A DNA stretch of 64,000 nucleotides from Nitrospirota bacterium (GTDB lineage Bacteria > Nitrospirota > Thermodesulfovibrionia > Thermodesulfovibrionales > JdFR-86): the NCBI GenBank assembly GCA_963721805.1, contig CAVRJY010000005.1, positions 1 to 64,000 of the forward strand. Reading direction: 5' to 3'. Every line of letters starts with the position of its first letter. Position 1 is the stretch's first letter. The position numbers were made by a program, and so were the translations under genes. Of the stretch, positions 25,039-56,405 are shown piece after piece. The notes below the pieces were generated by a model. That model saw only the letters and a program-made list of their open reading frames with translations. It was not told the origin of the DNA and ran no database searches.

Positions 25039-25199
25039 AAAGTCGCGCTAAATACGCGTGATACGTTGTCACGGCTCGGAAATCCGTCCTCCAGAGTACA
25101 TCTCAGTACACTTGCGGACGTTTTCCTCGCCGTTCCTAGTCTGACGCGATTTATCGCGCTTTAAGTATCCGCTGCATAATCGTGCGAGCGGTCAACGGC
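25039..25199 (-). repeat. Dispersed structured repeat, copy E (head type II)
   Basis: GCCGTTGACCGCTCGCACGATTATGC head on the minus strand. Confidence 0.9.
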
Positions 25200-25211
25200 A
25201 TATCTAATTAA

Positions 25212-25389
25212 GCAGTTGACCTTGGGGGTGCGGGGGTCCAGCGGCTGGGCCGCGTATAACCCCCGAAAGCGCAGCCAAATCGTCTTCAGACTAGGCAGCG
25301 GCGAGAAGATCGCCCGATGGTGTACTTGGACGTACATAGAGGGCGAGTCTTTGAAGCCCAACGACGTATCAAGCGATTTGGGGCGCTTT
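25212..25389 (+). repeat. Dispersed structured repeat, copy F (head type I)
   Basis: GCAGTTGACC head; 12 bp from the head of copy E. Confidence 0.9.
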
Positions 25390-25399
25390 CCCTTCCCGC

Positions 25400-26309
25400 T
25401 TAGAGCTCTTCGAAGTGACTAAGCGCCTTAAACCCTCTATAGCGGTTCTCTATCTCGCGATAGTCGAGAGAGCGGAGCCTATCCAGGCTAAACGCCTCGA
25501 CATTAAACGAGGCCATGACAGAGCCCATCACTACCGCGCGCCGCATCGCGGCCTCGCCGAAGTCCATCGAGTTCGCGAGGTATCCGATGAACCCGCCCGC
25601 GAAGGTGTCGCCCGCGCCGGTCGGGTCGTAGACGTCCTCGAGCGGGTATGCCGGGGCCGCGAAGACCCCGTTGGCCGAGAACATCAGCACGCCGTACTCG
25701 CCGCGCTTTATCACGACCGTCTGTGGCCCGAGCGTCATGATCACACGCGCGGCCTTCACGAGGTTGCGTCTCGCCGGTGAGCTGCCGGGCCTCGGCGTCG
25801 TTGATCAGCAGTATGTTGACGAGCTTGAGTGTCTTAAGCAGCGAGTCGCGCTGGCCCGAGATCCAGAAGTTCATCGTATCCATGGCGATGACCTTGGGGG
25901 CCTTGACCTGCCCCACGACCTCGCGCTGGAGGTCGGGGTGTATATTGGCGAGGAAGACGACCTCGGCCTCGCGGTGCGCGGCGCTCAGTATGGGCTTGAA
26001 GGTCTCAAAGACGTTAAGCTGCGTATCGTGCGTGCGTGCCTCGTTTAGCTCGTATGTGTATGAGCCCTTCCAGCGGAAGGTCTTCCCGGCGACGCGTTCT
26101 AATCCCGAGAGGTCGACCCCGCGCGATTTGAGGAACTTGACGTGCTTGTCCGGGAAGTCCTCGCCGACTACGGCGACGAGGCTTACGTCCGTGAAGTAGC
26201 TGGCCGAGGTCGAAAAGTACGTGGCAGAGCCCCCGAGCGCGTCTTCGACCTCGCCAAAGGGCGTCTTTACGGAATCCAGCGCCATCGAGCCCACCACCAG
26301 TAGTCCCAT
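25400..26309 (-). pseudogene. PfkB family carbohydrate/nucleoside kinase with one frameshift (possibly an assembly error)
   Basis: LGGSATY N-terminal half and DPTGAGDTF C-terminal half in different frames; extra base near 25766. Confidence 0.8.
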
Positions 26310-26445
26310 CCTCACAGCCTCCCGCAAGCGTAATTTCTCGGCGTATTATACACGAGATGGAATCGGGGGAGGCAATTTTGGTGTTGACACACGCGCTGTT
26401 TGGCATTAATATCTGTGCATCCATCAACACACGGAGGAACCGATA

Positions 26446-27178
26446 TTGAAAAGGGCATTCATTACGGCCGCGCTAGCTGGGCATCCTGGCGTTCTCGGCA
26501 GTCGCGGCCTCGGCCGAGGGGCCGCTCAAGGACGACAAGGCCAAGGAAAGCTACACCATAGGCTACCAGTTCGGGACGAGCATTAAAGAGCAGAAGATGG
26601 ATATCGACCTCGACATTATGATCTCGGCGATCAAGGACGGCCTCAAAGGTACAAAGGCCCCGCTCACGGCCGAGGAGATGGGCGACGTGATCGAAAAGCT
26701 CAGGGCCAGGATGACCGCCAACGCCGCACAGCGCCAGAAGGAACTCGACGAGGCGAACCTCGCCGAGGGCAAGGCGTTTTTGGCCGCGAACGCCAAGAAA
26801 GAGGGCGTAAAGACCCTCCCCAGCGGGCTTCAGTACAGGGTGATCAAGGAGGGCGAAGGCCCCAAGCCGACCGCGACGGACTTGGTCACGGTCAATTACG
26901 CCGGCTCGTTCATCAACGGCACGGAGTTTGACAGCACGTACAAGCGCAACAAGCCGGCCACGGTGAAGCTCGGCAGCATCATCCCCGGCTGGCGCGAGGC
27001 GCTCCCGATGATGAAGACAGGCTCGGAGTGGGAGGTCTTCATGCCCGCGGACCTCGCCTACGGCAACAGGCAGGCCGGGCCGATCCCGCCGGGCAGCACG
27101 CTCGTATTCAAGATCGAACTGCTGTCGATAGGGATCGAGAACGCGCCCTCGAAAGAGGTCCCGCCGCCGGCCGAGTAA
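26446..27178 (+). pseudogene. FKBP-type peptidyl-prolyl isomerase (FkpA/Mip-like), frameshift in the signal peptide (possibly an assembly error)
   Basis: SYTIG, LPSGLQY, EFDS, IPGWREAL, IPPGSTLVF; GGAGG RBS and TTG at 26446 are one base out of frame near 26476. Confidence 0.8.
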
Positions 27179-27200
27179 TGCCATAAATCAAGCGCGGCCT

Positions 27201-27545
27201 CTAGTTGTAGTCGTGCGTGCCGAGGACGACCCTGATCCCGGTCTTCTCGGCGATGAGTTTCGCCAAGTCCTCGGGGCTCGTATAGGGGCAGCCGGGTTTG
27301 GACTTCGCGAGGCAGGTGCTGAGGTGTATCACGTCGGGCTTGATCTGCGCGAGCTTCATCGACATGCCGAGGTTCGGGATCACGGTCCGTCCGGGGCACT
27401 CGCAGGTGAAGAAGCCTACTACGGTGTAAGGCTCCTCGTAGCTCCCATCGCCGAGCGCCGCCGCCTTCAGGCACCTCCACTCGCCGGGGCAGCCGTATCC
27501 ACTGTCCATGTATGCTCCGCAGCCGATTACAACGACGTTCTTCAT
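27201..27545 (-). CDS. CGGC-domain-like cysteine-rich protein
   Basis: IGC..CPGEWRC..TCECPG..IHLSTC..CP..VLGTH pattern; GGAGG RBS. Confidence 0.8.
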   Translation of the reverse strand: MKNVVVIGCGAYMDSGYGCPGEWRCLKAAALGDGSYEEPYTVVGFFTCECPGRTVIPNLGMSMKLAQIKPDVIHLSTCLAKSKPGCPYTSPEDLAKLIAEKTGIRVVLGTHDYN

Positions 27546-27762
27546 CTCGATTCAAACCTCCTTATATGTATGTCCCCGAAAGCCGGGTTGCACGAATGCG
27601 ATATTTTATATGATCGGAGCGGGAGAGTCCAGGGCAAGCGGGATGGAATCAAGGAGGGGGCAAGGCACGCACTATCTCGGCATTCGTTTGCTTAAGACAA
27701 AGTTGAAAAGGAGGGGCGGGGCATCAAGGCCGACATGCGGCTGATGCCCCACACCGAGTGAA

Positions 27763-27957
27763 CTATTGCTTTCCTATACGGATCTTTGAAAGGTCGCCTA
27801 TGAGACCGAAGACGCTCAAGAGCCAGATGATAACCGCGATGACCACTACCGCATTCAATATGCTCTTGATGGTAGACTGCATCGGTATAAAGCGGTTAAC
27901 CATCCATAAAACAACTCCAACGACTGCCAAGACTACAACTACCTGGACCAATGGCAT
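27763..27957 (-). CDS. Small membrane protein (two TM helices)
   Basis: AAGGAG RBS; hydrophobic, IPM..IKSILNAVV pattern. Confidence 0.75.
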   Translation of the reverse strand: MPLVQVVVVLAVVGVVLWMVNRFIPMQSTIKSILNAVVVIAVIIWLLSVFGLIGDLSKIRIGKQ

Positions 27958-28121
27958 AGCTCTTCTCCTTTCTGATTACTGCATGCTGTCCAAAAAGTAT
28001 CACAAGATGTCCGGCTGCACAAGACGTCCCCGGCCCTGCATTGGAACTTCTTTGACTTACGACGGCGGACGGCATAAGATTAGGATAATGTTATGGCGGA
28101 CCCTTTTGCCGGGAGGCACAT

Positions 28122-29513
28122 ATGAGATACATTAGGCGATTGTTGATGATTGTTTTATCGCTTGCGCTGTTTGTGGGCTGCGGGCTTGGGCAGATAAAAC
28201 CGCCCGAGGCCCGTGTCACGCCCGCGCAGGAGCCTCCGGCCGCGGACTCCTATCTCTTGATGCCAGTAACCGTCTCGCTCGACAAGGTCGTCGCGGAGCT
28301 CGACGGCGCGATCCCCCAAAGCGATGACCGTGACCGCGGGAACAAGGACTGGAAGGTAATCGGCCGCGTGGGCGGGGAGATCGGACTGCGCTATTACTGG
28401 GAGCGGGGCCCCGTCTCGCTGAGCGTGAGCGGGCGGCGCTTGAGGGCCGAGACCGCGCTCAGATACCGCGCAAGGGTCGGGCTGCGTGCGGGCAAGGGCT
28501 GGAAGGAGACGTTTTGCTGCGGCTGCGGCGACCTGAGCACCGCGCGGATAGGGCTTTCGACCCCAATTTCCATAAACCCTGACTGGAGCATCCACACTAA
28601 GATCGCGGCCACGCTTGGTGACACGGGACACCGCTGCAAGGTGAAGGTGCTTAATTTCGACGCGACTGAACTCGTGACCTCCAAGCTCCAAGACCTGATG
28701 AACTCCAAGGCCTCTGTGGTGGATCGGCTCATACGGGAAAAGGTGGACATCAAGCCCAAGGTGCAGGAGGCATGGCGGATACTGCAGCAGCCGATCCCGG
28801 CCGGCGATAACGCAAACCTGCTCATAAATCCCACGGGCCTGATGGTCTCGCCGTTAAGCGGGGACGGGAATTCCGTGAGCTTCTCGGTTGGAGTGGTGGC
28901 GCAGCCAAGGCTGGTCGCCGGGGTGCTGCCACCCGTGAGCTCAATCCCTCTGCCGAACCCTGAACCCAACGGCTCCCGGCAACGAGTTTCATGTCGCGCT
29001 CGAGGGGGAGGTGACATATGATTATGCCACCCAAAAGCTCGCGGACGCGGTCGTCGGGCATGAGTTCCCGATAGGGGACAAAAAGATCACGATAGCGGGC
29101 GCGAGGGTGTACGGCTCGGGGCAGTCCGTGGTGGTCGAGGCCGCGATCAAGGGCTCGTACGAGGGCACGGTCTACCTGTATGGAAGGCCCGCTTACGACG
29201 CCGCCAGCGCGCACCGTCTATATTCAGGACCTCGACTATACGATAGAGACAGACGAGCTTCCTCGGGAGGGTCGCGGACTGGCTCAGGCACTCGACCCTC
29301 CGGCAGGACATCGCGGCAAAGGCCAGGTGGTACGTCGGCGACAAGCTCGACGATGCCGATGCAAAGATAAACCGCGCCATCAATCGCGAGATCAGCCCCG
29401 GCGTATCCTTAAGCGGCAGCGTCGAGTTGCAGCCCGACCGGGTGATCCTGACCGAGACATCCATTAAGGCCATCGTCGTCGCGAGCGGGACGGTGGCGCT
29501 TAGCGTAAGGTAG
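28122..29513 (+). pseudogene. DUF4403-like lipoprotein broken by three frameshifts
   Basis: Lipobox FVGC; continuous reading restored by removing single bases near 28960, 29207 and 29255; ends at TAG 29513. Confidence 0.6.
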
Positions 29514-29545
29514 GCAGAAGCGAAAATCATGTTTTGTTATAATAG

Positions 29546-29722: not shown

Positions 29723-29896
29723 CGCTCTACCTCCGCATGCGTGGCATAGAGGCAAGAGACCACATCGACCCGCTAGGTTGTATTGCCATATAAAGATATT
29801 GACTATTAATAGCTATCAGCCTAATATAATGTCAAAGCAAGTCCTTTGGACTTCAACAGCATTCTTGATTTCTTACAACAAAGGGGCAAATATAAA

Positions 29897-30445
29897 ATGT
29901 CAACATCACGACGGAGTGTAGAAAAACATTTTTTAGAAGCTCCAAAGGAGATTCAAGGCTGCTTTGAACATTTGCCTAAACTGCTAAAAGAGTTCCCCTT
30001 AGATGTGAGCCTCGGGTATTTATTTTCTAGAGTTGAGTACATTCATAATATGGCACTATATTGCGGAGCTACAAAATTGCGCAGGACAGACTCGGAGCTT
30101 ACATGGAAAGCTATTGAATCGCATCAATTAACACGCGATGGGTTTCGTGAGTTTTTTACAAATATTTACGAAAATAGCATTCCTGACAATATCATACAGA
30201 AGATCAAACTAGCGGAAAAAGTCCGCGATAAAGCCTTGCATGGCAAGACACCGCCAGACAAAGATATTAGACCGGCACTTGTTGCGATAATTGACTATGC
30301 TAATTCTTTTAATGATTTTGTATATGGCATTGCTGGGCTCAGGCCTTTTACGAATAACCTTACTGGCTATAAAGGTCGCGGGGAGTCCTTAGACAAGCGC
30401 ACAACGCGGTTGATGTTGCAAGGATTAGGTTTTAAACTTTCATAA
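29897..30445 (+). CDS. Hypothetical protein, possible HEPN domain
   Basis: Low GC, predicted helical, RxxxxH motif (RDKALH). Confidence 0.6.
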   Translation: MSTSRRSVEKHFLEAPKEIQGCFEHLPKLLKEFPLDVSLGYLFSRVEYIHNMALYCGATKLRRTDSELTWKAIESHQLTRDGFREFFTNIYENSIPDNIIQKIKLAEKVRDKALHGKTPPDKDIRPALVAIIDYANSFNDFVYGIAGLRPFTNNLTGYKGRGESLDKRTTRLMLQGLGFKLS

Positions 30446-30451
30446 TTCCCT

Positions 30452-30694
30452 TTAGGCTGCTACGAGTTCTTCGTTTTGGATGGTAACCTTCGGATTAGGG
30501 TTTGACGGAGGCACGGGAAGCCCCTGTTCGTGGAGTAGGCTAACATGTTCGGCCATGCCCCATTTGGCCTTATAAAGGCAGTCCTCGACGGAATGCCCTA
30601 TGCCGCTGAACCCTTCGAGGTCAGGCGAGTAGAAACCGAAATAATCGGGCTCCTTTGTGGCTTCGATAATCAACGAATACGGTATATCAATCAT
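30452..30694 (-). CDS. hicB: HicB family antitoxin
   Basis: YSPDLEGFSGIGHSVEDC...LPVP; AGGAGG RBS; downstream of hicA. Confidence 0.85.
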   Translation of the reverse strand: MIDIPYSLIIEATKEPDYFGFYSPDLEGFSGIGHSVEDCLYKAKWGMAEHVSLLHEQGLPVPPSNPNPKVTIQNEELVAA

Positions 30695-30703
30695 GGCGTC
30701 CTC

Positions 30704-30892
30704 CTATTTCCTCAACCCTGCGGCCTTGAGGATCGCGTTGCATGTCCCGGTGGGGATTTCCTTCGAGCCATGGAAATCGACTCTGATGAGCTTGTCCCAG
30801 CCCGGTCGGCTATAGTATCGAATCGAGCCCTTTTCCTTTATCTGCCTGAATCCGGCTTCTTAAAGCATGCGGATCAGCTCGGAAAATTTCAT
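30704..30892 (-). pseudogene. hicA: HicA toxin with an in-frame TAA at codon 11
   Basis: MKFSELIRML*EAGFRQIKEKGSIRYY...HGSKEIPTGTCNAILKAAGL. Confidence 0.8.
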
Positions 30893-30950
30893 GCCTTATT
30901 ATAGCACTCCCGGCTTCAAGTAAATCCCGGACGCACTATCTCTAATAAAA

Positions 30951-31152
30951 GCCGTTGACCACGGGGGTGCGGGGGGCGTCCGTTATCCTCTCCCCCCGAA
31001 AGCGCGCCCAAATCGGCTTCAGACAAGGGGACCGGTTGGCCCCTTTTCTTTAGGAAGAGGGGTCCGTGACCTCCGCCCGATGGTGTACTGTGACGTACTT
31101 AGAGGGCGAGTCTTTGAAGACCAACGACGTATCAAGCGATTTGGAGCGCTTT
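30951..31152 (+). repeat. Dispersed structured repeat, copy G (head type I, double-hairpin insert)
   Basis: Full copy with an insert at about 31027-31074. Confidence 0.9.
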
Positions 31153-31191
31153 CACTTCCGCATTGACTCCCCCCCGACATAACCGATAAAA

Positions 31192-34611: not shown

Positions 34612-34671
34612 GCTCGGTGAAAACGCGCTTTCCAAGATGGGCGAAAGCCGCTGGCCGCTGCCGCGGTCCGA

Positions 34672-34700
34672 TTGACAGTTGAAGCATTAGGGCCTAAGCT
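34672..34700 (+). promoter_or_regulatory. Sigma70-type promoter
   Basis: TTGACA-17 bp-TAAGCT. Confidence 0.6.
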
Positions 34701-34709
34701 TATGGTGTC

Positions 34710-34856: not shown

Positions 34857-34881
34857 CCCGTTAACCGCGATTGGAACCTAC

Positions 34882-34911: not shown

Positions 34912-34943
34912 AGGAATCTTACACCGCTCCCGCTACCTTCTTG

Positions 34944-35118
34944 AAAGCGATCCAAAGTTCCGGGATACTGCGTCACGTCTCGGAAATCCGTCCTCGATGT
35001 ACGTCTCAGTACACCGTCGGACGTTTTCCTCGCCGTTTCCTTGTCTGCCGAAATTTGGCCCGCTTTATGGGGTTAAACGCGGCCCAGCCGCTGGACCCCA
35101 TACCCCGTGGTCAACGGC
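34944..35118 (-). repeat. Dispersed structured repeat, copy H (head type I)
   Basis: Reverse-strand full copy. Confidence 0.9.
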
Positions 35119-35300
35119 GTTAAATTAGGGACACCCATACTGCTACCGGCTACTTTGACATAGTATGTCTCAGTGTGATAAATAATAAGTGGAGGTGCAG
35201 ATATGACATAGGATAAAATGGCTATATTTTTTGAAATGGTTTCACCAAGTATAAGACGCCCTTTGGGCCGAAAATGATTGCGTTGTAAAAGGAAAAGAAA

Positions 35301-35483
35301 ATGGAAATTCAGCCGTCAAAGAAGAGCCAAGCGCTCCCACGTTGTCAGACCAAGATAAGCGGGTCAGGGTATAACTGCACTACCAATGATCCTGGGGTTC
35401 AGCAATACATAGGCAAGGGCATCTTAATTCTATTGATCTGTGTTGGAGTTGCCGTTATATTAAAGGCGATGCCCCGCAACTGA
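35301..35483 (+). CDS. Small hypothetical membrane protein
   Basis: AAGGA RBS, one C-terminal TM helix, lower GC; between repeats H and I. Confidence 0.45.
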   Translation: MEIQPSKKSQALPRCQTKISGSGYNCTTNDPGVQQYIGKGILILLICVGVAVILKAMPRN

Positions 35484-35510
35484 TCGTTCTGTGCATAAGT
35501 AAATAGAGGC

Positions 35511-35554
35511 TATAGACACCACGGCCCCTCGTTCGAGGGGCCGTGGTGTCTATA
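35511..35554. repeat. Perfect 21-bp-arm inverted repeat
   Basis: TATAGACACCACGGCCCCTCG-TT-CGAGGGGCCGTGGTGTCTATA. Confidence 0.9.
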
Positions 35555-35661
35555 TGTTTAACATGGGATCGATGATCTTGCAATCGTGAATAAAATTAAT
35601 CGCTAATCAAGAACCTTCATTGGCGCGGGGGCAGCGGGAGCAAACCAGCCACTATTATAAT

Positions 35662-35822
35662 GCCGTTGACCGCTCGCACGATTATGCAGGGGAAGGTTAA
35701 AGTGCGAGAAATCGTGTCAGACAAGGAACGGCGAGGAAAACCGTCCGCAGTCGTACTGGGATGTACTTCGAGGACGGATTTCCGAAGCCGTGACGACGTA
35801 TCACGCGCATTTCGCGCGCTTT
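35662..35822 (+). repeat. Dispersed structured repeat, copy I (head type II)
   Basis: Full copy. Confidence 0.9.
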
Positions 35823-35828
35823 GAGAAC

Positions 35829-36242
35829 CTAGACTATCAGCCGCAGCTTTTTTATCTCTTGAAGCAATAAACCCTTGTCTATGGGCTTGACTATGTAGGA
35901 GAGCGCCTCACCTTTATAGAACGCGACCGATACGTTCTTCGGGTCGTCGAGCGACGTGATCATGATGACCTTCATCGCCTCGTGCGCCCCGATGCCGCGC
36001 TCGCGCTCCATCGCGCGGACGTGTTCGAGGGCCTCCTGCCCGCTGAGGTGCGGCATGATGATGTCCATCAGTATCAGGTCGTAGGGCGCGCCCTCGTCAA
36101 GCGCGATGCGGCAGGCCTGCACCGCCTCCAGCCCGTTTACGGCGACCTCGATGCTGCCGTACTCGCTCAGGATCGAGGTCAGGATCTGCCTGTTGACGAA
36201 GTCGTCCTCAGCGATCAGTATCTTCATCGCGGTATCTTTCAC
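35829..36242 (-). CDS. Single-domain response regulator (CheY-like)
   Basis: ILIAEDD, DLILMDIIMP, YIVKP. Confidence 0.9.
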   Translation of the reverse strand: MKDTAMKILIAEDDFVNRQILTSILSEYGSIEVAVNGLEAVQACRIALDEGAPYDLILMDIIMPHLSGQEALEHVRAMERERGIGAHEAMKVIMITSLDDPKNVSVAFYKGEALSYIVKPIDKGLLLQEIKKLRLIV

Positions 36243-47694: not shown

Positions 47695-48017
47695 GATCGC
47701 TTCTGGCATTCATACTCTTGCTCATCCTACTGACTGCCGGTACCGCGCTTGCGGTGGCGCCCGAGAAGTCGGTCGACTACGACGGCGGGATTCTCGGGAT
47801 GGTCACGTTTTCGGGCAGGACGCACGCGGATGCGGGCCTTAGGTGCGACGACTGCCACACGCGCATATTCCCGAGGCTCAGCGGGGCCGGACATATGACC
47901 AGCCGCGACCATATCAAGGAACTGCTCTGCGGAGTCTGCCACAACGGCAAGAGGGCGTTTAGCGTTAATGAAGAGTCGGCCTGCGACAAGTGCCATCAGC
48001 GCAATCCGGGGCCGTAA
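47691..48017 (+). CDS. Triheme c-type cytochrome (c7-like)
   Basis: Signal peptide; CDDCH, CGVCH, CDKCH. Confidence 0.85.
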   Translation: MRSLLAFILLLILLTAGTALAVAPEKSVDYDGGILGMVTFSGRTHADAGLRCDDCHTRIFPRLSGAGHMTSRDHIKELLCGVCHNGKRAFSVNEESACDKCHQRNPGP

Positions 48018-48050
48018 TTCACCACATCATTCCTGTCCGATAGATCTTCT

Positions 48051-48238
48051 AAAGTCGCGCTAAATACGCGTGATACGTCGTCACCGTTCGAAAAACGATC
48101 CTCGAAGTATGTCCATATACGACTGCGGGGGTCACAGACCCCTCCTGTAAAGAAAAAGGTGCCCATGGCACCCCTAGTCTGACGCGATTTATCGCGCTTT
48201 AAAGTGGTCATTGCATAATCGTGCGAGCGGTCAACGGC
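48051..48238 (-). repeat. Dispersed structured repeat, copy K (head type II, double-hairpin insert)
   Basis: Reverse copy; apex GTAT-ATGGAC-ATAC; insert at about 48127-48174. Confidence 0.88.
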
Positions 48239-48281
48239 ATTGATTAGAGCATTTCGATTGCTGATTTGATATAATCGGGAT

Positions 48282-48509
48282 ATGAGGAAGATCAAGATAA
48301 CCGCCGAGCTGTTGCCTGCCGAGGAAGGCGGCTTCGTGGTGTATTGCCCCGAACTCGACATAACCACCGAGGGCGAGACCGCCGAGGAGGCAATCGCGAT
48401 GCTCAAGGATGCCGCGCTTGGGTATGTCGAGGTCACGGGCATCGAGAACATCCCCCATTTTTCCGCTAATACCGTCCGGGAAGAGCTTGAACTCGTGGTG
48501 AATGGCTAA
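48282..48509 (+). CDS. hicB: HicB family antitoxin
   Basis: EEGGFVVYCPELDITTEGETAEEA. Confidence 0.88.
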   Translation: MRKIKITAELLPAEEGGFVVYCPELDITTEGETAEEAIAMLKDAALGYVEVTGIENIPHFSANTVREELELVVNG

Positions 48510-48750
48510 AGCGCCTTCCGTCAGCGGCAAGGAGCTGTCCGCTGTGCTTGAGAGGGAGGGCTTCAAGCTCGTAAGGCAGACCGGAAGCCACAGGATATAT
48601 CAGAAGCAGACCGAAGAAGGCACAATTACAATCCCCGTCCCGGTGCATTCGAACAAGCCGCTTAAGAAAGGCACCCTCCACGCGATCATCAAGAAAGCCG
48701 GAATCACGATGGAGAGACTTTCGTTCCTGCTCGCGATCCTGTTCGGCTAG
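48502..48750 (+). CDS. hicA: HicA family toxin
   Basis: GFKLVRQTGSH, VPVH..LKKGTLHAI. Confidence 0.9.
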   Translation: MAKAPSVSGKELSAVLEREGFKLVRQTGSHRIYQKQTEEGTITIPVPVHSNKPLKKGTLHAIIKKAGITMERLSFLLAILFG

Positions 48751-48827
48751 GGGGCAGCGCCCCTTGGCTGCCGAAATTTATCGCGCTTTGATGTAGCTTA
48801 TGCCTAACCGTGCGAGCGGTCAACGGC
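48751..48827 (-). repeat. Dispersed repeat, copy L (5' half only, head type II)
   Basis: Head plus left arm, ending at a GGGGC-GCT-GCCCC hairpin after CAAG. Confidence 0.8.
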
Positions 48828-48841
48828 ATGTTGAGGCTACC

Positions 48842-49666
48842 TCATTCAGCGGTTGACCAAGCAGCGTAATACGTGTCGTTCAAGTAATTTGCAAGCTTGT
48901 TGGTCCCATCAACAAACTGCTTCCATACCTGTCGAGTTTCAACAAGCAGAAAATCCAACTCAAAATCAGGAGGTTGTTGTCCAGGGATTGCCAATAATTT
49001 GCCTTTTTCTTGCTGTATTGGTGCTATCTGAGTCTCCTTAGGCCAATCCACATATGGTGTCTCATTGTGGACAAATTCATGTCGATATGTTTTCATCAGC
49101 TTTCTTGTTTCTTCTGAATCGAAACATTCATAAAGCAGACTGCACAATTCAGGGTTCTTCTTATTGGCTTTCTTGCAATATATTGAGAAAGACATTTTCT
49201 GTTTATTTGTTTCTGTATTGATAAAACATAATTTAGCATGCGAGTTCAGTAACCATGCGAGCTTTTCACGATAAGAATGTAGCCTGAATATCGCATTATC
49301 CAAGTAATATTTCGAATAAAACCAAGCTTCGCCACAGAACGATTTCGAATCCACAAAATCAAGGAATTCAGCACACTGACTTTTTGTCTTTTGCTCATTA
49401 AGGTATCTTGACCAAGCTAAGGCCCAACTGAGACTAACAGCTATAGAGCTTCCACAGTTGTAGACTTGTCTCCACCATTTTGGAATATTATTTACATCAC
49501 AGTAAAACTCAATAGAATCGAGAGCGGGACGCTTCAGAATATTACCTAGAGAAATCCTGCCTTTTGGCAGTGGCAAACTGTCCCAGTCAGTATTTTCAAT
49601 TTTTAAGGATGTTGCGTATTCGGCAACTATACGGAGTCTATCAAGGTAGGCTTCTTTTTCATCCAT
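48842..49666 (-). CDS. Probable HEPN-domain protein (Cthe_2314-like)
   Basis: Low GC; DNAIFRLHSYREKLAWLLN and RHEFVH (RxxxxH). Confidence 0.65.
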   Translation of the reverse strand: MDEKEAYLDRLRIVAEYATSLKIENTDWDSLPLPKGRISLGNILKRPALDSIEFYCDVNNIPKWWRQVYNCGSSIAVSLSWALAWSRYLNEQKTKSQCAEFLDFVDSKSFCGEAWFYSKYYLDNAIFRLHSYREKLAWLLNSHAKLCFINTETNKQKMSFSIYCKKANKKNPELCSLLYECFDSEETRKLMKTYRHEFVHNETPYVDWPKETQIAPIQQEKGKLLAIPGQQPPDFELDFLLVETRQVWKQFVDGTNKLANYLNDTYYAAWSTAE

Positions 49667-49696
49667 CTTTCTTCCCTCTCGGCCACCAGCAAAACC

Positions 49697-49918
49697 TTAC
49701 GTCAGCAGGCTCGCCACAGAGATGTCCTCGTCGATCTCTTCCCAGTGTATGCCGATTCCCCGGCCTATGAGGCGCCATCCGGCGCGCTGGGCCTCGGACG
49801 CGTCACGGAGCCTAGGGAACCACTCGAACGGGACACTTATCTGCCGGCCGTCTAGGAGGCGCACATGCAACATATCGTTATCGAACCATACGGCGTTTGC
49901 TATATGAGCAGTAGACAT
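49697..49918 (-). CDS. DUF2442 domain protein
   Basis: LLDGRQISVPFEWFPRL, GIHWEEIDEDIS. Confidence 0.88.
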   Translation of the reverse strand: MSTAHIANAVWFDNDMLHVRLLDGRQISVPFEWFPRLRDASEAQRAGWRLIGRGIGIHWEEIDEDISVASLLT

Positions 49919-50160
49919 GAGTTGATTATACCACTTCGATTATTGCCGGCCGATTGTCCCCACTCACCGCTGAGCTGTGCCCCCTTCATTAACAATAGTT
50001 AATCGAAAGTTAATAGAAAACGCACAGGGCTCAATTTTTCCTATAACCTTCTGTTTATATATAAACCAAAGTTTGGCATTCTTTAGTGTATAGTGGTGAC
50101 ATGAGCATGATAGAATCATATTTGATGGGCTGGACAGGCGAGGATGCAGGGTTCCGCACT

Positions 50161-50344
50161 TGTTCGGATAAATCGCTAAATACCGCTCTTTTTATCCGAA
50201 CATCCGAACAAGACGGACTCAGTGAAGCTATATATTCCGCAGGGTTAGCCTCGTTTTTGTCTCCAACATCCGAACAAAAAAGGCAAAAACGCGCGCGCAC
50301 GCGCGCGGAATGCGTAACTATACCTAAGCGCGAACGTCCGAACA
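50161..50344. repeat. Cluster of five TCCGAACA octamers
   Basis: One inverted copy (50161) and four direct copies (50195, 50203, 50269, 50337). Confidence 0.7.
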
Positions 50345-50345
50345 C

Positions 50346-50517
50346 GCCTTTGACCTCGTGGGGCGCGGGGGGCCTCCGTAATGTTCTCCCCCCGAAAGCG
50401 CGCCCAAATCGGCTTCAGACAAGGCAGGGCGAGAAGACCGCCCGATGGTGTACTGTGACGTACATAGAGGGCGAGTCCTCGCAGCCCAACGCAGTATCAA
50501 GCGATTTGGCGCGCTTT
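50346..50517 (+). repeat. Dispersed structured repeat, copy M (head type I)
   Basis: GCCTTTGACC head; body nearly identical to copy A. Confidence 0.9.
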
Positions 50518-50559
50518 GCACCTATTGCCAATAACGATTATTTTGAGTACCATATACCC

Positions 50560-51654
50560 ATGGTAATCGGCGTGCCGAAAGAGATCAAGCCCCAGGAGCA
50601 CAGAGTGGCCCTCACGCCCGAGGGCGCGCGCGAACTGGTGCGCGAGGGCCACACAGTGCTGTGCGAGGCCTCGCTCGGCGAGGGCAGCGGATTTCGGGAC
50701 ATGGACTATATCGCGGCGGGCGCGTCGATCGTGCCCAAGGAGGCGGTGTTCGCGGACGCCGCGCTCGTCATCAAGGTCAAGGAGCCGATACCCGAGGAGT
50801 TCCCGTTCCTGCGGCCCGGGCTTGCGCTCTTCACCTTCCTGCACCTCGCGGCCAACACCGCTCTGACGGACACGCTGATGCGGGGCCGCATCACAGCCCT
50901 TGCGTACGAGACGCTCACGCGCGGCGGCCGTTTCCCGCTCCTGATGCCGATGAGCGAGATAGCCGGGCGGATGGCCCCGATCATGGGGGCGCACTACATC
51001 CAGCGCACCTATGGCGGAAGCGGCCTGCTGCCCTCTGGAGTGCCGGGCGTGGCCCCGGCGGGCATGCTCGTATTGGGCTCGGGCGTCGTAGGCTCAAACG
51101 CCGCGCGCGTCGCGGTTGGCCTCGGCATGGACGTGACCGTGCTCGGGCAGGACATCGCCCAGCTTCGCGAGATAGACCGCGAGCACTGTTTCAGGGTCAA
51201 GACGCGCGTGTTCTCGGACGAGGCGCTGGAGGAATGCCTCGCGCTGGCGGACGTCGTGGTAGGCGCGGTGCTCGTAAACGGGGAGCGCGCCCCGGTGCTC
51301 GTACGGCGCTCGATGCTCACTCTCATGAGGCGCGGCGCGGTCGTCGTGGACGTCTCGATAGACCAGGGCGGCTGCTTCGAGTCCTCGCACCCGACCACTC
51401 ACGCCGACCCCGTGTTCGTGGACTCGGGCGTGGTGCACTACTGTGTGGCGAACATGCCGGGCGCGTATCCTCACACCTCGACGCTCGCTCTGACGCATGC
51501 AACGCTGCCGTACATCAGGGCGCTCGCTTCAAAGGGCATAGAGGTCGCGATGAAGAAGGACGCGGAGCTCAGAAGCGCGCTTAACGCCTATGACGGGATG
51601 ATTGCCCACAGGGGGCTTGCGGAGTCGACCGGGCTGCCGTTTACGGAGTTTTAG
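50560..51654 (+). CDS. ald: Alanine dehydrogenase
   Basis: IGVPKEIK, KVKEP, PMSEIAGR, DQGGCFE, VANMPGA; start trimmed to ATG 50560. Confidence 0.95.
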   Translation: MVIGVPKEIKPQEHRVALTPEGARELVREGHTVLCEASLGEGSGFRDMDYIAAGASIVPKEAVFADAALVIKVKEPIPEEFPFLRPGLALFTFLHLAANTALTDTLMRGRITALAYETLTRGGRFPLLMPMSEIAGRMAPIMGAHYIQRTYGGSGLLPSGVPGVAPAGMLVLGSGVVGSNAARVAVGLGMDVTVLGQDIAQLREIDREHCFRVKTRVFSDEALEECLALADVVVGAVLVNGERAPVLVRRSMLTLMRRGAVVVDVSIDQGGCFESSHPTTHADPVFVDSGVVHYCVANMPGAYPHTSTLALTHATLPYIRALASKGIEVAMKKDAELRSALNAYDGMIAHRGLAESTGLPFTEF

Positions 51655-52027
51655 CCGGGTGCTTGCGCTGTAGTTCGGCCAGGGCCTGCAGCCTGCGCAC
51701 ATGCGGGTTTACGGCCAGCACCAGGAGGTTCAGCCCGGAGGATAGCGCGAAGAACAGGCCGGTCAGAAAGAGAGCGAGAGCGGAGCCTGCCATCACCGCG
51801 AAGACGATCCACTTCGAGGCCCATACGAGCGCCCCGCCCTGGATCTTGAACTTGTAGAGGTAGTAGAGGTCGGGCTTGCCTGTCCACAGCACGTAGGCGA
51901 GCGAGGTCGAGAGTATCGCCGAGACGAGCATCGCCGCGGCGTCGCGGGCGAATATCCATACGTAGATCCCGCCGAGGCTGTGCCCGGCGGCCGCCTGCTT
52001 GAGCCTGCGCTTTATGCGGTCTTTCAT
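51641..52027 (-). CDS. Hypothetical membrane protein
   Basis: Two hydrophobic segments; follows nadE. Confidence 0.55.
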   Translation of the reverse strand: MKDRIKRRLKQAAAGHSLGGIYVWIFARDAAAMLVSAILSTSLAYVLWTGKPDLYYLYKFKIQGGALVWASKWIVFAVMAGSALALFLTGLFFALSSGLNLLVLAVNPHVRRLQALAELQRKHPAKTP

Positions 52028-52031
52028 CTGG

Positions 52032-53762
52032 TTACGAGCCCTCTCCCCGGTATCCGTTCGTGATCGGCATGCGCCGGTCTTTGCCGAACGCGCGCTGCGT
52101 GATCTTGATCCCCGGCGGCGACTGCCTTCGCTTGTACTCCGAGCGGTCGACCATCCGCACCACGCGCCTTATTATATCCTGAGGCGCGCCGGTCTGGCCA
52201 GCTATCTCGTCCATGCCGCGCTCCTGCTCGACGTAGGCGCGCAGGATCGGGTCCAGCACGTCATAGGGCGGGAGGCTGTCGGTGTCGAGCTGGCCGGGGC
52301 GGAGCTCCGCGGTCGGCTCGCGCGTGAGGACGCGCTGGGGTATCACGTCCGACTGGGCGTTGCGCCAGCGCGCGAGGCGGTATACCATCGTCTTGGGGAC
52401 GTCCTTGATCACCGCGAACCCGCCTGCCATGTCGCCGTAGAGCGTGGCGTACCCCACGCTCATCTCGGATTTGTTGCCGGTCGTGAGCACGAGCGAGCCG
52501 GTCTTGTTCGAGACGGCCATCAGGAGGTTGCCCCTGATGCGGGCTTGGAGGTTCTCCTCGGCCGTGTCGGGCTTCATGCCCCTGAAGGCGTCCGCGAGCG
52601 CCGCGTCGTATGAGCGGAAGACCGGGTCTATCGGGATCGTCAGGAGTTTAAGCTTGAGCGACCGGCAGAGCGCGACGCTGTCGTCGCGGCTCATCTTCGA
52701 GGTATAGCGCGAGGGCATGAAGATGCATGTGATGTTCTCCGGCCCGAGCGCGTCGGCGGCTATCGCAGCGACGAGGGCGGAGTCCACCCCGCCGCTTAAC
52801 CCTATGAGCGCGCCCTTGAAGCGGTTTTTGCGGACGTAGTCGCGCAGCCCGAGCACGAGCGCGGCATAGACCTCCTCGTCGTCCGGCATCGGCTCCGGCA
52901 TAGGCGCGGGCTTTGAGGCGGGCTTGCGCTTTCTGGGCTTGAAGTCTACGTCCACGGGCTCAGCGCTCGGGGCGGCCTCGGCCTGCTTGCGGCGGCGGGG
53001 GTCCATGAGGCGGCGCATGAAGACTCCGTCGAGATCGAGGTCAGCGACGAGCAGGCCTTCCCTGAACTGTGGCCCGCGGCTGATGACCTCGCCCTGCTCG
53101 TTTAAGATCATGCTCGCGCCGTCGAAGACGAGCTCGTCCTGGCCGCCAACCATGTTTAGGTATGCGACCACGACCGAGCTGTCGGTCGCGCGCGTGCGGA
53201 GCATCGCCTCGCGCTCGGCAAGCTTGCCGATTGAGTACGGCGATGCGTTTATGTTGATGATGAGCTCCGCGCCCGCGACGGCCTGCATGCGGTGCGGCCC
53301 CTCGGGATACCAGATGTCCTCGCAGATCGTTATGCCGACCAGGACCTCGCCGATGCGGAAGACCGTCGGCGCGCATCCGGGCTTGAAGTACCTGAACTCG
53401 TCGAAGACCCCGTAGTTGGGCAGGTGGGCCTTGCGGTATGTGCCGGCTAGGTGGCCGCCCGTGAGCACAGCGGCCGAGTTATAGATGTCCACGTCGCGCT
53501 CGACGAACCCGACGACCGTGACGATCCCCTTGGGCACGGCCTTGCGCACCGCATCGAGCGCGAGGAGGTTGTCCTCGATGAAGCCCTGCTTCAGGAGCAG
53601 GTCCTCGGGCGGATAGCCGGTAATCGCGAGTTCGGGGAACGCGACCACGTCCGCGCCGAGGCCATGGGCCTCCTTTATCAAGGCAACTATCTGCCGAGCA
53701 TTCCCCGCGAGGTCGCCTACCGTGGGGTTCGTCTGCGCGAGCGCGAGCCTTAGCGTCTTCAT
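52032..53762 (-). CDS. nadE: Glutamine-dependent NAD+ synthetase
   Basis: Nitrilase domain (FPEL, ICEDIW), LSGGVDS, ENLQARIRG, TGNKSE, EYKRRQ; start trimmed to ATG 53762. Confidence 0.96.
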   Translation of the reverse strand: MKTLRLALAQTNPTVGDLAGNARQIVALIKEAHGLGADVVAFPELAITGYPPEDLLLKQGFIEDNLLALDAVRKAVPKGIVTVVGFVERDVDIYNSAAVLTGGHLAGTYRKAHLPNYGVFDEFRYFKPGCAPTVFRIGEVLVGITICEDIWYPEGPHRMQAVAGAELIININASPYSIGKLAEREAMLRTRATDSSVVVAYLNMVGGQDELVFDGASMILNEQGEVISRGPQFREGLLVADLDLDGVFMRRLMDPRRRKQAEAAPSAEPVDVDFKPRKRKPASKPAPMPEPMPDDEEVYAALVLGLRDYVRKNRFKGALIGLSGGVDSALVAAIAADALGPENITCIFMPSRYTSKMSRDDSVALCRSLKLKLLTIPIDPVFRSYDAALADAFRGMKPDTAEENLQARIRGNLLMAVSNKTGSLVLTTGNKSEMSVGYATLYGDMAGGFAVIKDVPKTMVYRLARWRNAQSDVIPQRVLTREPTAELRPGQLDTDSLPPYDVLDPILRAYVEQERGMDEIAGQTGAPQDIIRRVVRMVDRSEYKRRQSPPGIKITQRAFGKDRRMPITNGYRGEGS

Positions 53763-53823
53763 TGGGTTATAATATCCGACGCCCGGCGCTTTGTAAAGCC
53801 GCAGGCGGCAAGGAGGGCGCGGC

Positions 53824-54708
53824 GTGGAGCTGCTCGACGTGGTGTTTTCGGTCTCGGGCGTCAAGACCAACATACTCCTGCCGCCGCTGGTCGCGATGGC
53901 GATATCGTTTTTCACCTCGATGGGCGGCGTGTCGGGCGCGTTTCTGCTCCTGCCGTTTCAGATGAGCGTGCTTGGGTACACGAGCCCCTCGGTGAGTTCC
54001 ACTAACTTCGTCTATAACATCGTCGCGATCCCAAGCGGGGTCTACCGTTTTATACGCGAGGGCAGGATGTTCTGGCCGCTTACGATGGTGATAATCCTCG
54101 GCACCCTGCCCGGCGTATTCATCGGATATTACGTCCGCGTGCTGTGGCTCCCGGACCCCAGGCGGTTCATGGCGTTCGCGGGCTGGGTGCTCTTATACAT
54201 CGGCGGCAGGCTCGCATACGGCCTTATCAGGGAGCGCGCGACTATGCCTGTCGCGATACCGCCCAGGGGCTCGGTCGTTACCCCGGTCTCGGTAAGGCTG
54301 CGGCGCGTGGAGTTCGATTTCCTCGGGGAGCGCCACGGCTTCAGCACGATAGGGATGTTCATGCTCGCGCTGGTGGTCGGAGTGATCGGCGGGACGTACG
54401 GCATCGGCGGGGGCGCGATCATCGCGCCGTTTTGCGTCGCGATATTCGGGCTCCCGGTATACGCGGTGGCAGGGGCGGCGCTCATGGGCACGCTTATCAC
54501 CTCGGTCGCGGGGGTCGCATTCTATAGCATCATACCCTCGGCCCAGAACACCCAGCCTGACTGGGCATTAGGCGCTTTATTCGGCGCGGGCGGGTTCGTG
54601 GGGGTATATCTCGGCGCAAGATGCCAGAGGTTTGTGCCCCAGCGCTACATCAAGATCATGCTCACCCTTGTCCTCCTCGGTCTCGCGGCGAAGTATTTGC
54701 TAAGGTAG
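53824..54708 (+). CDS. TauE/SafE family sulfite exporter
   Basis: GGVSGAFLLLP and YGIGGGAIIAP repeats; many TM helices. Confidence 0.88.
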   Translation: MELLDVVFSVSGVKTNILLPPLVAMAISFFTSMGGVSGAFLLLPFQMSVLGYTSPSVSSTNFVYNIVAIPSGVYRFIREGRMFWPLTMVIILGTLPGVFIGYYVRVLWLPDPRRFMAFAGWVLLYIGGRLAYGLIRERATMPVAIPPRGSVVTPVSVRLRRVEFDFLGERHGFSTIGMFMLALVVGVIGGTYGIGGGAIIAPFCVAIFGLPVYAVAGAALMGTLITSVAGVAFYSIIPSAQNTQPDWALGALFGAGGFVGVYLGARCQRFVPQRYIKIMLTLVLLGLAAKYLLR

Positions 54709-54726
54709 GGTACTGACGCTTTTTGG

Positions 54727-54884
54727 AAAGTCGCACTAAATCGCGTGATACTGCGTCGCGAGTCAAAAATCGCCCTCGGAGTACATCCCAGTACACCATC
54801 GGGCGGTCTTCTCGCCGCTCCTAGTCTGACGCGATTTATCGCGCTTTGGTGTAGCCTCGCATAATCGCGCGAGCGGTCAACGGC
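54727..54884 (-). repeat. Dispersed structured repeat, copy N (head type II)
   Basis: Reverse full copy. Confidence 0.9.
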
Positions 54885-55027
54885 ATTTATTAGAGCATCC
54901 CAGCCGCTGCCCCTCGGACTGGCGATGAAATATTTCATGAGATAAAATCCGCTCGCGATGTTTTGAAAAATATTGTATTATTCATCATCCTTGCGAGTTG
55001 AGCAAATTTTGTATCTAAAGGGGTTTA

Positions 55028-55627
55028 TTGGAGGTTAATCCGATGGAACTAAAATTAAAAGATATGTATAGCTATCTGCTCTCACATACTTTCCCGGGGT
55101 TATTTTTTGGGATAGAGATAATGTTTATATTCAAATGGTTTATGAACGTCGATTTGATATCACCAATCATTATTGAATTTACAAAGCCTGACAATGCAGG
55201 CATCGTCATTGCAGTGGTTGTTCTCTCATATGCTTTTTCCACACTATTGGGTTTCGTACTCGACGGTATCCATCATTTTGTATATGAAGATTTCATGCGA
55301 AAATTCGATGGATATAAAGATGACGATATTTTTGCTGCTATAAATACAATTGAGCGGATGCAAATATACCAACATTTCGTTGAAGATGATTACTGGTACC
55401 CCTATGAAGCATATGCAAATATTAGCATTGCAATGTTGCCTGGCCTTTTTTTATTGACATACAAGCTAATTAATTTAGGGATTACGTGGTGGATCATCTG
55501 CTTATTTACTATCGTATATATTTTAATCCTCTATATTATGTTTTATGAAGCAAAATGCACATATGAATGCTGCTGCGATAGAGAAGAACAAATAATTAAA
55601 AATTTTAGCAATGATAAGAAAGAATAA
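55028..55627 (+). CDS. Hypothetical membrane protein (low GC)
   Basis: About four TM segments; GGAGG RBS favours ATG 55043. Confidence 0.7.
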   Translation: MEVNPMELKLKDMYSYLLSHTFPGLFFGIEIMFIFKWFMNVDLISPIIIEFTKPDNAGIVIAVVVLSYAFSTLLGFVLDGIHHFVYEDFMRKFDGYKDDDIFAAINTIERMQIYQHFVEDDYWYPYEAYANISIAMLPGLFLLTYKLINLGITWWIICLFTIVYILILYIMFYEAKCTYECCCDREEQIIKNFSNDKKE

Positions 55628-55651
55628 TGGCATTTTTACAGAGAACGATGA

Positions 55652-56167
55652 ATGGTTAAAATAGAAGTGGTCAAACAATTTGATGAGCAAACATTGAAAG
55701 ATATCTTATTTATCCTAAGAGATTCTTTCCCATTACAATGGCGGTATGATGATGATTATACCTATTACAAATCAATGTTAAACAATAAAATGAACATACA
55801 TCTTTTTCTAATAGTTGATGGTAGGAGAGTTGGTTATTTACATGCAATCCCTCATGTTGATGCGGCAGATGAATTGAAAGAAGATGATCCAGAAATGCGA
55901 CCCGACTCTTCAATGTATTATATTGAAGTCGTAGGAATACGTTCCGAATACCGAGGCAGAAAAGGTTTTACGCTCATGCTTGAAGCATTAAAGCATGAAT
56001 GCAGATTAAGAGGCATAAGCAAAATATCGTTGCATGCAAGGGTTCACACTAATTTTAGCGAGATTATTCAACATAAACTAAATGTCGATACTATAAGAAG
56101 GGTTGAGAAATGGAAACATTACAATTTTGAAGAACCTACTGATTATATTGAGGCATCTTTCTATTAA
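55652..56167 (+). CDS. GNAT family N-acetyltransferase (low GC)
   Basis: YYIEVVGIRSEYRGRKG acetyl-CoA motif, ISLHA. Confidence 0.75.
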   Translation: MVKIEVVKQFDEQTLKDILFILRDSFPLQWRYDDDYTYYKSMLNNKMNIHLFLIVDGRRVGYLHAIPHVDAADELKEDDPEMRPDSSMYYIEVVGIRSEYRGRKGFTLMLEALKHECRLRGISKISLHARVHTNFSEIIQHKLNVDTIRRVEKWKHYNFEEPTDYIEASFY

Positions 56168-56232
56168 TTACACCAACCGATGAGTTCTTCGACACTTGAG
56201 TCCACCGGCACCCATGATAATCTCTAATTAAT

Positions 56233-56405
56233 GCCGTTGACCTTGGGGTGCGGGGTCCAGCGGCTGGATCGCATAACCCCGAAAGCGCGCCCAAATCGTC
56301 TTCAGACAAGGAAACGGCGAGGAAAACGTCCGATGGTGTACTGAGACGTACATCGAGGACGGATTTCCGAGACGTGACGCAGTATCAAGCGATTTGGAGC
56401 GCTTT
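56233..56405 (+). repeat. Dispersed structured repeat, copy O (head type I)
   Basis: Full copy. Confidence 0.9.

Follow-up and report, generated by a model that had tools for sequence, protein, structure and literature searches.

Inverted pairs of a structured repeat around small low-GC islets in the genome of a Nitrospirota bacterium

Integron cassettes are small, AT-rich units that often carry orphan, toxin-antitoxin or acetyltransferase genes, each beside an imperfect palindromic repeat of 60-140 nt. Mobile insertion cassettes (MICs) hold passenger genes between inverted repeats and lack a transposase. Likewise, cargo-carrying derivatives of miniature inverted-repeat transposable elements (MITEs), for instance the Tn3-derived inverted-repeat miniature elements (TIMEs), are described as non-autonomous, with inverted repeats enclosing passenger genes and no transposase (PMC4133298). 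The dif modules of Acinetobacter plasmids are described as accessory, often toxin-antitoxin, units with two oppositely oriented sites each, some of them without a reading frame (PMC13141974), and plasmid dif (pdif) sites as targets of insertion sequence (IS) elements (PMC13141974, PMC10132070). In the account of PMC3898611, the neisserial dRS3/RS arrays are modular intergenic repeats that flank variable genes, one type being a prophage integration target; a promoting role of the arrays in recombination with incoming DNA is proposed, and homologous recombination swaps the cassettes that lie between conserved genes. Repetitive extragenic palindrome (REP) doublets forming hairpins (REPINs), finally, are presented as old, vertically kept extragenic repeats whose replicating unit is an inverted doublet (PMC3337134, PMC3116915). 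Here we report on a structured repeat, R, in a 64,000-nt stretch of a Nitrospirota bacterium (assembly GCA_963721805.1, contig CAVRJY010000005.1, positions 1 to 64,000 of the forward strand; "the window") and in the 2.78 Mb genome to which it belongs (G000 in coordinates below). An initial annotation, made from the letters of the window, had noticed inverted pairs of R around AT-rich genes and read them as a repeat-guided gene capture system. Our analysis concerns this one genome and uses sequence data.

Low-GC islets between inward-facing heads

Read from its inner end, the unit of R (~190-200 nt) comprises an AT-rich 10-mer, the head GCCGTTGACC, a variable module and a 135-nt imperfect palindrome ending in GCGCTTT. 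The variable module is either a G/C-rich hairpin in one of three forms (Ia, Ib, Ic) or a type-II motif. In the window the head occurs 22 times at one mismatch or less (5.03 expected; 22 was reached in 0 of 100 shuffles) and the type-II motif 5 times at two mismatches or less (0.11 expected). A profile built from ten window copies and run over the genome with nhmmer gave 240 matches, or 239 once overlaps were removed, spread over 6 contigs; 189 of these cover the head part of the model, and in 180 the head could be located, 124 being of type I and 56 of type II. Heads, hairpin arrays and the adjoining module X (see below) were typed by simple patterns.

The AT-rich inner side seen in the window proved to be a genome-wide feature. 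Over the 180 heads, the 300 nt flanking the head have a mean GC content of 0.506 vs 0.595 at the tail (Wilcoxon p 7e-25); GC content lies below 0.5 in 50% of head flanks, 1.7% of tail flanks and 7.5% of 300-nt genome windows, and tails are found next to low-GC genes almost never (1.7-2%). Nor are neighbouring copies oriented at random. Head-to-head neighbours lie within 4 kb of each other in 60 of 72 cases (median gap 1587) and tail-to-tail neighbours in 13 of 70 (median 8928; Mann-Whitney p 1.5e-14), and R therefore cuts the chromosome into long tail-bounded core segments and short head-bounded segments. There are 45 head-bearing pairs closer than 4 kb, and the DNA that they enclose has a GC content below 0.50 in 34 of the 45 and below the genome mean in all but one. 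DNA of GC <0.5 is faced by 76% of the paired heads (n=90) and by 24% of the unpaired ones (n=90): the signal is carried by the pair, not by the single head. An unpaired head faces at least 300 nt of low-GC DNA in 28 cases, in 6 of which a copy that is headless or partial lies at the far end. Headless cores in the same genome show no bias (5' flank GC 0.567, 3' flank GC 0.575), nor do the headless copies of two relatives described below, which makes the link between R and the islets specific to head-bearing copies. The link is not exclusive: of the low-GC segments 1-2 kb long, 13 are bordered by heads on both sides and 14 on one, 4 have a repeat nearby and 15 have none, and large islands on contig C2 are without R at their borders. 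The ~45 to 60 small, foreign-looking stretches that inverted R pairs enclose in this genome suggest an undescribed way of holding or exchanging accessory genes.

In the window, the copies of R and the DNA between them are as follows.

25022..25207, minus strand: R copy E, with a type-II head at 25190-25199 and the tail ~15 nt after the stop of a nitroreductase gene (24487-25023); nhmmer model positions 8-202
25200..25211, unstranded: E/F spacer of 12 bp, ATATCTAATTAA, GC 0.08; the 'empty' pair, with heads at 25199 (E, minus) and 25212 (F, plus)
25201..25392, plus strand: R copy F, with a type-Ib head at 25212-25221 (one mismatch) and the tail abutting the stop of a split pfkB-family gene
29789..30950, unstranded: one-sided islet facing the head of G, a low-GC run of 1150 nt with two open reading frames (ORFs) without family matches
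30939..31155, plus strand: R copy G, with a type-Ia head at 30951, an extra hairpin module inserted in the core and the tail towards dnaE
34926..35130, minus strand: R copy H, with a type-Ib head at 35109-35118 and the tail towards the dnaE end
35119..35661, unstranded: H/I cargo of 543 bp, GC 0.44, with a 60-aa ORF (35301-35483) followed by a 21-nt perfect palindrome (35511-35554)
35651..35839, plus strand: R copy I, with a type-II head at 35662-35671 and the tail overlapping the end of a minus-strand response-regulator gene
48045..48250, minus strand: complete R copy to the left of L, type II, with an inserted terminator-like hairpin and the tail just past a cytochrome c7 gene
48282..48750, plus strand: hicB-like ORF and hicA toxin gene between two co-oriented R copies (HicA_toxin, E 6.6e-20)
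48761..48830, minus strand: R copy L, truncated to the head (48827), the type-II module and the start of the core; nhmmer model positions 13-93
48842..49918, minus strand: L/M cargo genes, HEPN (Cthe_2314-like) and DUF2442; L/M gap 1518 bp, GC 0.44
49975..50345, plus strand: module X, ~370 nt, AT-rich, non-coding, abutting the head of M
50344..50537, plus strand: R copy M, with a type-Ia head at 50346-50355 (GCCTTTGACC)
54710..54896, minus strand: R copy N, with a type-II head at 54875-54884 and the tail overlapping the end of a TauE-family gene
54885..56232, plus strand: N/O cargo of 1348 bp, GC 0.34, with a 199-aa ORF without family match and a GNAT acetyltransferase gene (55652-56167)
56220..56425, plus strand: R copy O, with a type-Ib head at 56233-56242 and the tail abutting the stop of a minus-strand PilZ gene

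As can be seen, four inverted pairs with inward heads (E/F, H/I, L/M and N/O) lie where the initial annotation had placed them, and the lengths that it gave for the enclosed DNA (12, 543, 1518 and 1348 bp) are correct. With GC contents of 0.08, 0.44, 0.44 and 0.34, respectively, the cargo is indeed more AT-rich than the neighbouring core (0.60-0.69). The small ORF and the perfect palindrome reported between H and I are present, and the HEPN protein (family HEPN_Cthe2314) and DUF2442 assignments between L and M were confirmed. For N/O, the GNAT assignment stands and the 'membrane protein' (55028-55627) has no Pfam or PADLOC match; similarly, 1150 nt of low-GC DNA indeed lie in front of the head of G, for which there is no partner copy, and the 'TA/HEPN' label of that islet found no support, its two ORFs being without Pfam or PADLOC match. 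The initial annotation had overlooked the type-II copy at 48045-48250, which is complete and separated from L by hicB/hicA, and the extension of the repeat 10 nt past the head into the AT-rich side. Pair E/F is located between two convergent genes. The pfkB-family kinase gene next to F (25400-26327, minus strand) is split into two overlapping ORFs, 25503-26327 and 25400-25759, and is probably frameshifted or a pseudogene. Elsewhere in the window, two further low-GC stretches (GC 0.37-0.44), at 1-3340 and 19851-20747, have no border repeat, the latter adjoining a tRNA-Gly gene (19442-19513); and 4299-6033 holds tandem and dispersed direct repeats (33-nt, 42-nt and ~380-770-nt periods) inside apparent coding regions of GC 0.60-0.68.

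E/F had been taken as an empty site, and pairs enclosing little or nothing do exist: the genome has 7 inverted neighbours with a gap below 120 nt and arms 130-190 nt long, most inverted pairs being 0.5-4 kb apart. The contents of the filled pairs were surveyed on 111 ORFs of at least 60 aa from 43 islets, many of the unmatched ORFs possibly not being genes. A Pfam match at E 1e-4 was obtained for 39 of the 111. These include parts of toxin-antitoxin systems (HepT with a nucleotidyltransferase, ParE with Phd, Gp49-like with a helix-turn-helix protein, MazE) and genes for restriction or abortive infection (Abi_C, a restriction enzyme of MmeI type and a fusion of a methylase with an Mrr nuclease), next to a KAP NTPase, a Ser/Thr kinase, ankyrin repeats and transposases. 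PADLOC models were matched by 15 of the 79 cargo proteins scanned, none of them from the islets of the window. Across the 43 islets, the only DNA shared is module X and IS copies, with no cargo in common. Cargo genes show no strong orientation with respect to the heads, 107 pointing towards and 73 away by crude ORF calling.

Each of the four window pairs joins one type-I and one type-II head, as the initial annotation had observed, and from this it had drawn a rule that pairs are always mixed. The rule does not hold in the genome: the 45 pairs comprise 22 I/II, 17 I/I and 6 II/II, at an expected mixed fraction of 0.43 (binomial p 0.45), and four mixed pairs out of four would arise with a chance of 0.034. 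The heterotypic rule is thus a chance feature of the window. A weaker polarity, set by module X, exists. X is conserved and abuts 50 heads in the genome in fixed orientation. Its elements are ATCCGAACA repeats, an AT palindrome and an alternating-CG hairpin preceded by a poly-A run; run and hairpin together read as an intrinsic terminator on the opposite strand (minus in the window). In 26 of 27 X-bearing pairs X is on one side only; the X side is of type I in 20 of the 26 and the other side of type II in 15 of the 26 (Fisher p 0.023). A hidden gene in X was considered and rejected: the similar ORFs share just a stretch translated from X and have no family matches.

Age of the repeat, its relatives and its insertion sequences

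Conservation of R ends ~10 nt outside the head, on the AT-rich side, and ~7 nt beyond the tail. Within the repeat it is highest at the inner head and far lower at the outer, tail end: the positions of TTGACC are each retained in 177 to 180 of the 180 heads, and R cores have a mean identity of 75%. The exact head motif occurs 142 times in the genome, ~125 of these being R heads, and a control pattern 13 times. The core folds alike on both strands (z -4.35 each), and 4 of 17 predicted core pairs carry double compensatory changes among 12 window copies. Identity to the nearest neighbour has a median of 0.90 and reaches at least 0.97 in 2 of 160 copies; R copies are old, compared with the identical IS copies described below. 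The tail lies a median of 3 nt, counted from the alignment end, from a stop codon (87 copies), with genes called by a crude longest-ORF method that affects gene distances and orientations; tails abut genes of either direction, 87 at 3' ends and 82 at 5' ends.

Several local arrangements of the repeat were encountered. Tandem duplication of the head (head, ~11 nt, head) is found three times, at G000:C4:310828-310858, C1:655740-655761 and C1:387150-387180, one of them consisting of a truncated type-II head and then a complete type-I head. Arrays of two to four different small G/C hairpins, with a conserved 13-nt linker between them, abut 27 heads (for instance at G000:C1:383094 and C4:195572), and these 27 head flanks are never low-GC. 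The same small hairpins are also found inserted within R, giving a mosaic grammar like that of bacterial interspersed mosaic elements (BIMEs).

BLAST with one R copy was positive in 1 of 31 genomes, the own genome. A covariance model of the R core found matches in 4 of 11 genomes of the family: G000 itself, G002 (17 matches), G003 (24) and G006 (4). The forms in the three relatives are headless. Those of G002 and G003 are symmetric palindromes that lack GCCGTTGACC and have inverted arms of ~25 nt at their outer ends. On the side that corresponds to the head, their flanks show no low-GC bias (0.651 vs 0.615, n 13, in G002; 0.555 vs 0.568, n 18, in G003); a few copies of this symmetric form are also present in G000. 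Such headless, unbiased forms in relatives make the head, the variable module and the islet link a derived feature of the present lineage. R may accordingly be regarded, as far as the sequences go, as an asymmetric, lineage-specific derivative of an older, symmetric, hairpin-forming MITE-like repeat. A related core was also noted in ~20 copies, 40-70 nt upstream of start codons and with no GC bias, in a 5.5 Mb Syntrophorhabdaceae metagenome-assembled genome (MAG; L001-L011, G031). In 80 metagenome NadE loci (873,473 bases), the best NadE relative being 62% identical, no R was found. Members of the family have PurL identities of ~66-70%, and the gene that follows the L/M islet has in them weak matches only (33-38% identity, internal stop codons), on other contigs than purL. 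Among public reads, one run contained 0.13 of the sampled words; its contigs, 200-290 nt long, are exact matches to the window that also cover cargo, and the three joints fall in repeats.

Other identities for R were looked for as well. Rfam returned one tRNA only at gathering score, and no match at E <=1 on three MAG loci and on 24250-25450. A sigma-70 promoter at the head was rejected, its TTGACC having, by our reading of the copies, no -10 partner at usable spacing, and a consensus scan of 47900-50700 found no promoter at any head. A DNA-uptake signal was rejected too: the first 5 letters of the head 10-mer recur in the neisserial uptake sequence as given in PMC3898611, and the 10-mer is not dispersed, ~125 of its 142 exact copies being R heads. 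Keyword searches of the literature, which are weak evidence, found no account of R or of genome-wide inverted structured repeats around islets.

IS elements are frequent guests of R and X. An IS30-like element of ~1085 bp with a 326-aa ORF splits R at one fixed site, the small core hairpin, in at least four copies:

G000:C1:387255-388338: IS30-like insertion in R
G000:C1:649324-650408: IS30-like insertion in R
G000:C1:759636-760721: IS30-like insertion in R
G000:C2:397059-398144: IS30-like insertion in R

The IS30-like element thus targets R. Ten IS481-like copies, a near-identical 1202-bp block with an rve domain and 6-7-bp duplications (for instance G000 C1:963225-964259 and C1:669775-670809), are all inserted in GGAAC..GTTCC palindromic iterons of a longer X variant next to heads. 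Six IS200-like copies share an identical 601-bp block (for instance G000 C4:138498-138929 and C4:146463-146894); five are in or next to R-bounded islets, and two stand at matching places beside the same AT palindrome, in what we read as module X. These IS elements are young, and mobile DNA is drawn to both R and X. The IS200-like and IS481-like elements were each considered as the driver of the islets and rejected, both having their own ends and being lodgers in the islets. In the whole genome, PF01797 (Y1 transposase) has 6 matches, all to the one identical 601-bp IS200-like element, with hairpin ends of its own and unrelated AT-rich sites.

What the pairs may do

We favour, tentatively and with a probability of roughly 0.4, the reading that old foldback-like R doublets at gene ends are landing pads for foreign DNA. 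Inverted R pairs, with their tails tight on core genes and their near-invariant heads inward, would form ~45 to 60 fixed sockets, each filled with a short, unique low-GC cassette (toxin-antitoxin, restriction, Abi-like or orphan genes) and with IS elements. The unit would be the pair, a foldback-like doublet at a gene end at which foreign DNA and IS elements enter and are exchanged, with R hairpins and terminator-like modules then acting as a shield for the adjoining core genes. Two routes of entry may be envisaged, neither with a dedicated enzyme. Foreign DNA may enter at the centre of the palindromic doublet, by recombination or in the repair of a break, or it may be taken up by the cell and then exchanged by homologous recombination through the R arms. 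The landing pad is favoured because the inner end is conserved, the pair tracks foreign DNA, R is old, and the content is unique and still invaded by IS elements.

Several points weigh against this reading. Heads nearly touch in E/F only, with one more pair at 68 bp; of the other doublets below 120 nt, four have a partner lacking the head motif and one is just a core fragment. With so few near-touching heads, empty doublets would be rare if doublets are the ground state. The other 22 of the 28 unpaired heads that face at least 300 nt of low-GC DNA have, like G, no R match at the far end. From the bias of head types relative to X it would seem that a head moves together with its cassette, which is easier to reconcile with mobility of the unit or with site-specific recombination than with a passive landing pad. 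The tight spacing of tail to stop codon (median 3 nt, by crude ORF calling) is not explained by a landing pad. That R came first and the cargo later would be read solely from sequence divergence and GC content, and any break or repair step is hypothetical.

An unlikely alternative is transposition of whole units, in which R-cargo-R would be a non-autonomous, foldback- or MIC-like transposon with R as long terminal inverted repeats and a transposase acting in trans, E/F being a cargo-less derivative. The geometry is that of a transposon, inverted repeats around short unique cargo (60 of 72 head-to-head pairs within 4 kb); the bias of head types relative to X would give the units a left and a right end; and the symmetric relatives in G002 and G003, with their 25-nt outer inverted arms, resemble classical MITEs. 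Recent copies and duplicated cargo are nevertheless missing, which weighs against this explanation: a nearest neighbour with an identity of at least 0.97 exists for only 2 of 160 R copies, and cargo is never duplicated between islets. Traces of insertion are missing as well. For 159 single copies, the longest word shared by the two flanks equals the shuffled control, with 3 outliers of at least 10 nt, one being a 16-nt duplication in the mrdA/rodA overlap; and no direct repeats were seen, by eye and unscored, outside the tails of the pairs inspected (from among 39, both tail ends located). Also against it stand the outer tail end, much less conserved than the inner head, and the arms of partners, which are no more alike than random arms (0.754 vs 0.750, p 0.54). 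No RAYT, TnpB or IS110-type gene was found in searches of the genome.

The idea of the initial annotation, a dedicated site-specific cassette system with the head as recombination site and with two kinds of ends, in the manner of Acinetobacter dif modules or integron cassettes, we consider quite improbable. It would account for a near-invariant 12-nt head inside an otherwise diverged repeat, for the form of E/F (two inverted 10-12-nt arms around an AT-rich centre), for the three tandem head duplications at 11-nt spacing and for the bias of head types relative to X (p 0.023), and dif modules are likewise described as bounded by opposite sites (D/C, C/D), with toxin-antitoxin cargo and one module without a reading frame (PMC13141974). 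Simple integration of a circle, however, gives direct and not inverted flanking sites, and the cargo shows no second inverted arm next to the heads: over the 60 nt next to the head on its cargo side, a head-like motif in inverted orientation was found for only 4 of 180 heads, two of which are E and F themselves. At the cargo side of paired heads, 3.21 of 12 nt are identical in direct repeat, as compared with 3.29 for shuffled partners. The proposed entry of foreign DNA at the TAAT head junction thus finds no backing, with neither a target duplication at the cargo junctions nor an inverted head-like arm inside the cargo. Moreover, the combination of head types is random over all pairs (22 of 45 mixed), ordinary DNA lies in front of 76% of the unpaired heads, and the motif is scarce outside R. 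As far as we looked, no recombinase gene lies beside R; the genome has 7 tyrosine-recombinase matches and 1 resolvase match, which were not examined further. A chromosome-wide form of such a system is, in our estimate, doubtful: the 12-nt motif would be a recombination site at which, together with polar X, a putative host enzyme captures, inverts and exchanges defence and toxin-antitoxin cassettes at ~60 sockets. Equally doubtful is the corollary that it would be a chromosomal counterpart of dif modules and integrons, built on a domesticated MITE.

More improbable than these is selection without any capture, R having spread as ordinary MITEs and been kept in the right orientation where its hairpins and terminators insulate core genes from the transcription or silencing of foreign AT-rich DNA. 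Consistent with it are the tails hugging core gene ends (median 3 nt to the stop, 87 copies), the terminator-like hairpins in X and in inserted R modules, and stems of an old repeat that keep pairing (double changes in 4 of 17 pairs). Selection would, however, leave unexplained why the inner head is the most conserved part and why the 370-nt X is on exactly one side in 26 of 27 pairs, and it would require many independent insertions at exact core/islet junctions, yet there is no recent movement in the family. A mere effect of geometry, R sitting at gene ends with its tail to the gene so that intergenic DNA falls on the head side and the islet link is incidental, would suit the tails that abut genes whatever their direction (87 at 3' and 82 at 5' ends) and the place of E/F between convergent genes, but is highly improbable given low-GC DNA at 50% of head flanks (76% if paired) vs 7.5% of genome windows, tails that nearly never abut low-GC genes (1.7-2%) and the unbiased headless copies here and in relatives.

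R pairs beside known cassette and repeat systems

Descriptions of small defence and toxin-antitoxin islets usually place them in hotspots between core genes and give no visible signature for their borders. Here, ~45 to 60 islets in one 2.8 Mb genome have a common structured border element in the same orientation, plus a second polar module. Through the R borders, the placement of such islets, their separation from the core and perhaps their exchange become accessible at the DNA level. Should the borders be acted on by an enzyme or a structure-directed process, this would be a new gene-capture route and a possible tool for targeted insertion; if not, it would still be a clear case of a repeat family domesticated as a boundary of foreign DNA.

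Integron cassettes have cargo of like flavour to that of the R islets, but they are co-oriented in one array next to intI, whereas the R pairs are inverted and dispersed over 6 contigs, and there is no base pairing of the conserved head with the opposite end of the palindrome. The dif modules are alike in having borders of opposite orientation, as the heads are inverted round each islet; they differ in their 28-bp XerC/XerD sites, their location on small plasmids and their sharing of sites between consecutive modules, R being a 190-nt structured repeat in sockets scattered over the chromosome with no enzyme implicated. Compared by eye with what we take to be the dif consensus, the 12-nt head shows no likeness. 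REP/BIME elements are mosaics of small GC hairpins and linkers and in this resemble the hairpin arrays that abut R heads. REP units are, however, far shorter and depend on a single-copy RAYT, whereas the Y1 search found here just the six identical IS200 copies with their own ends; to our knowledge, REPINs do not carry cargo. MICs and TIMEs have short terminal repeats that match a known transposon family and produce target duplications; here, neither duplication nor cognate transposase was found. Neisserial mosaic elements, Correia elements and minimal mobile elements are alike to R as abundant intergenic repeats by variable genes. The dRS3 repeat is 20 bp long and occurs in arrays, and PMC3898611, as far as its treatment of these repeats was available, describes no rule of one inverted pair with a conserved inner end per islet. 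The dif modules, neisserial arrays, REPINs and MITE derivatives thus each share some features with R, and none matches it in defining features.

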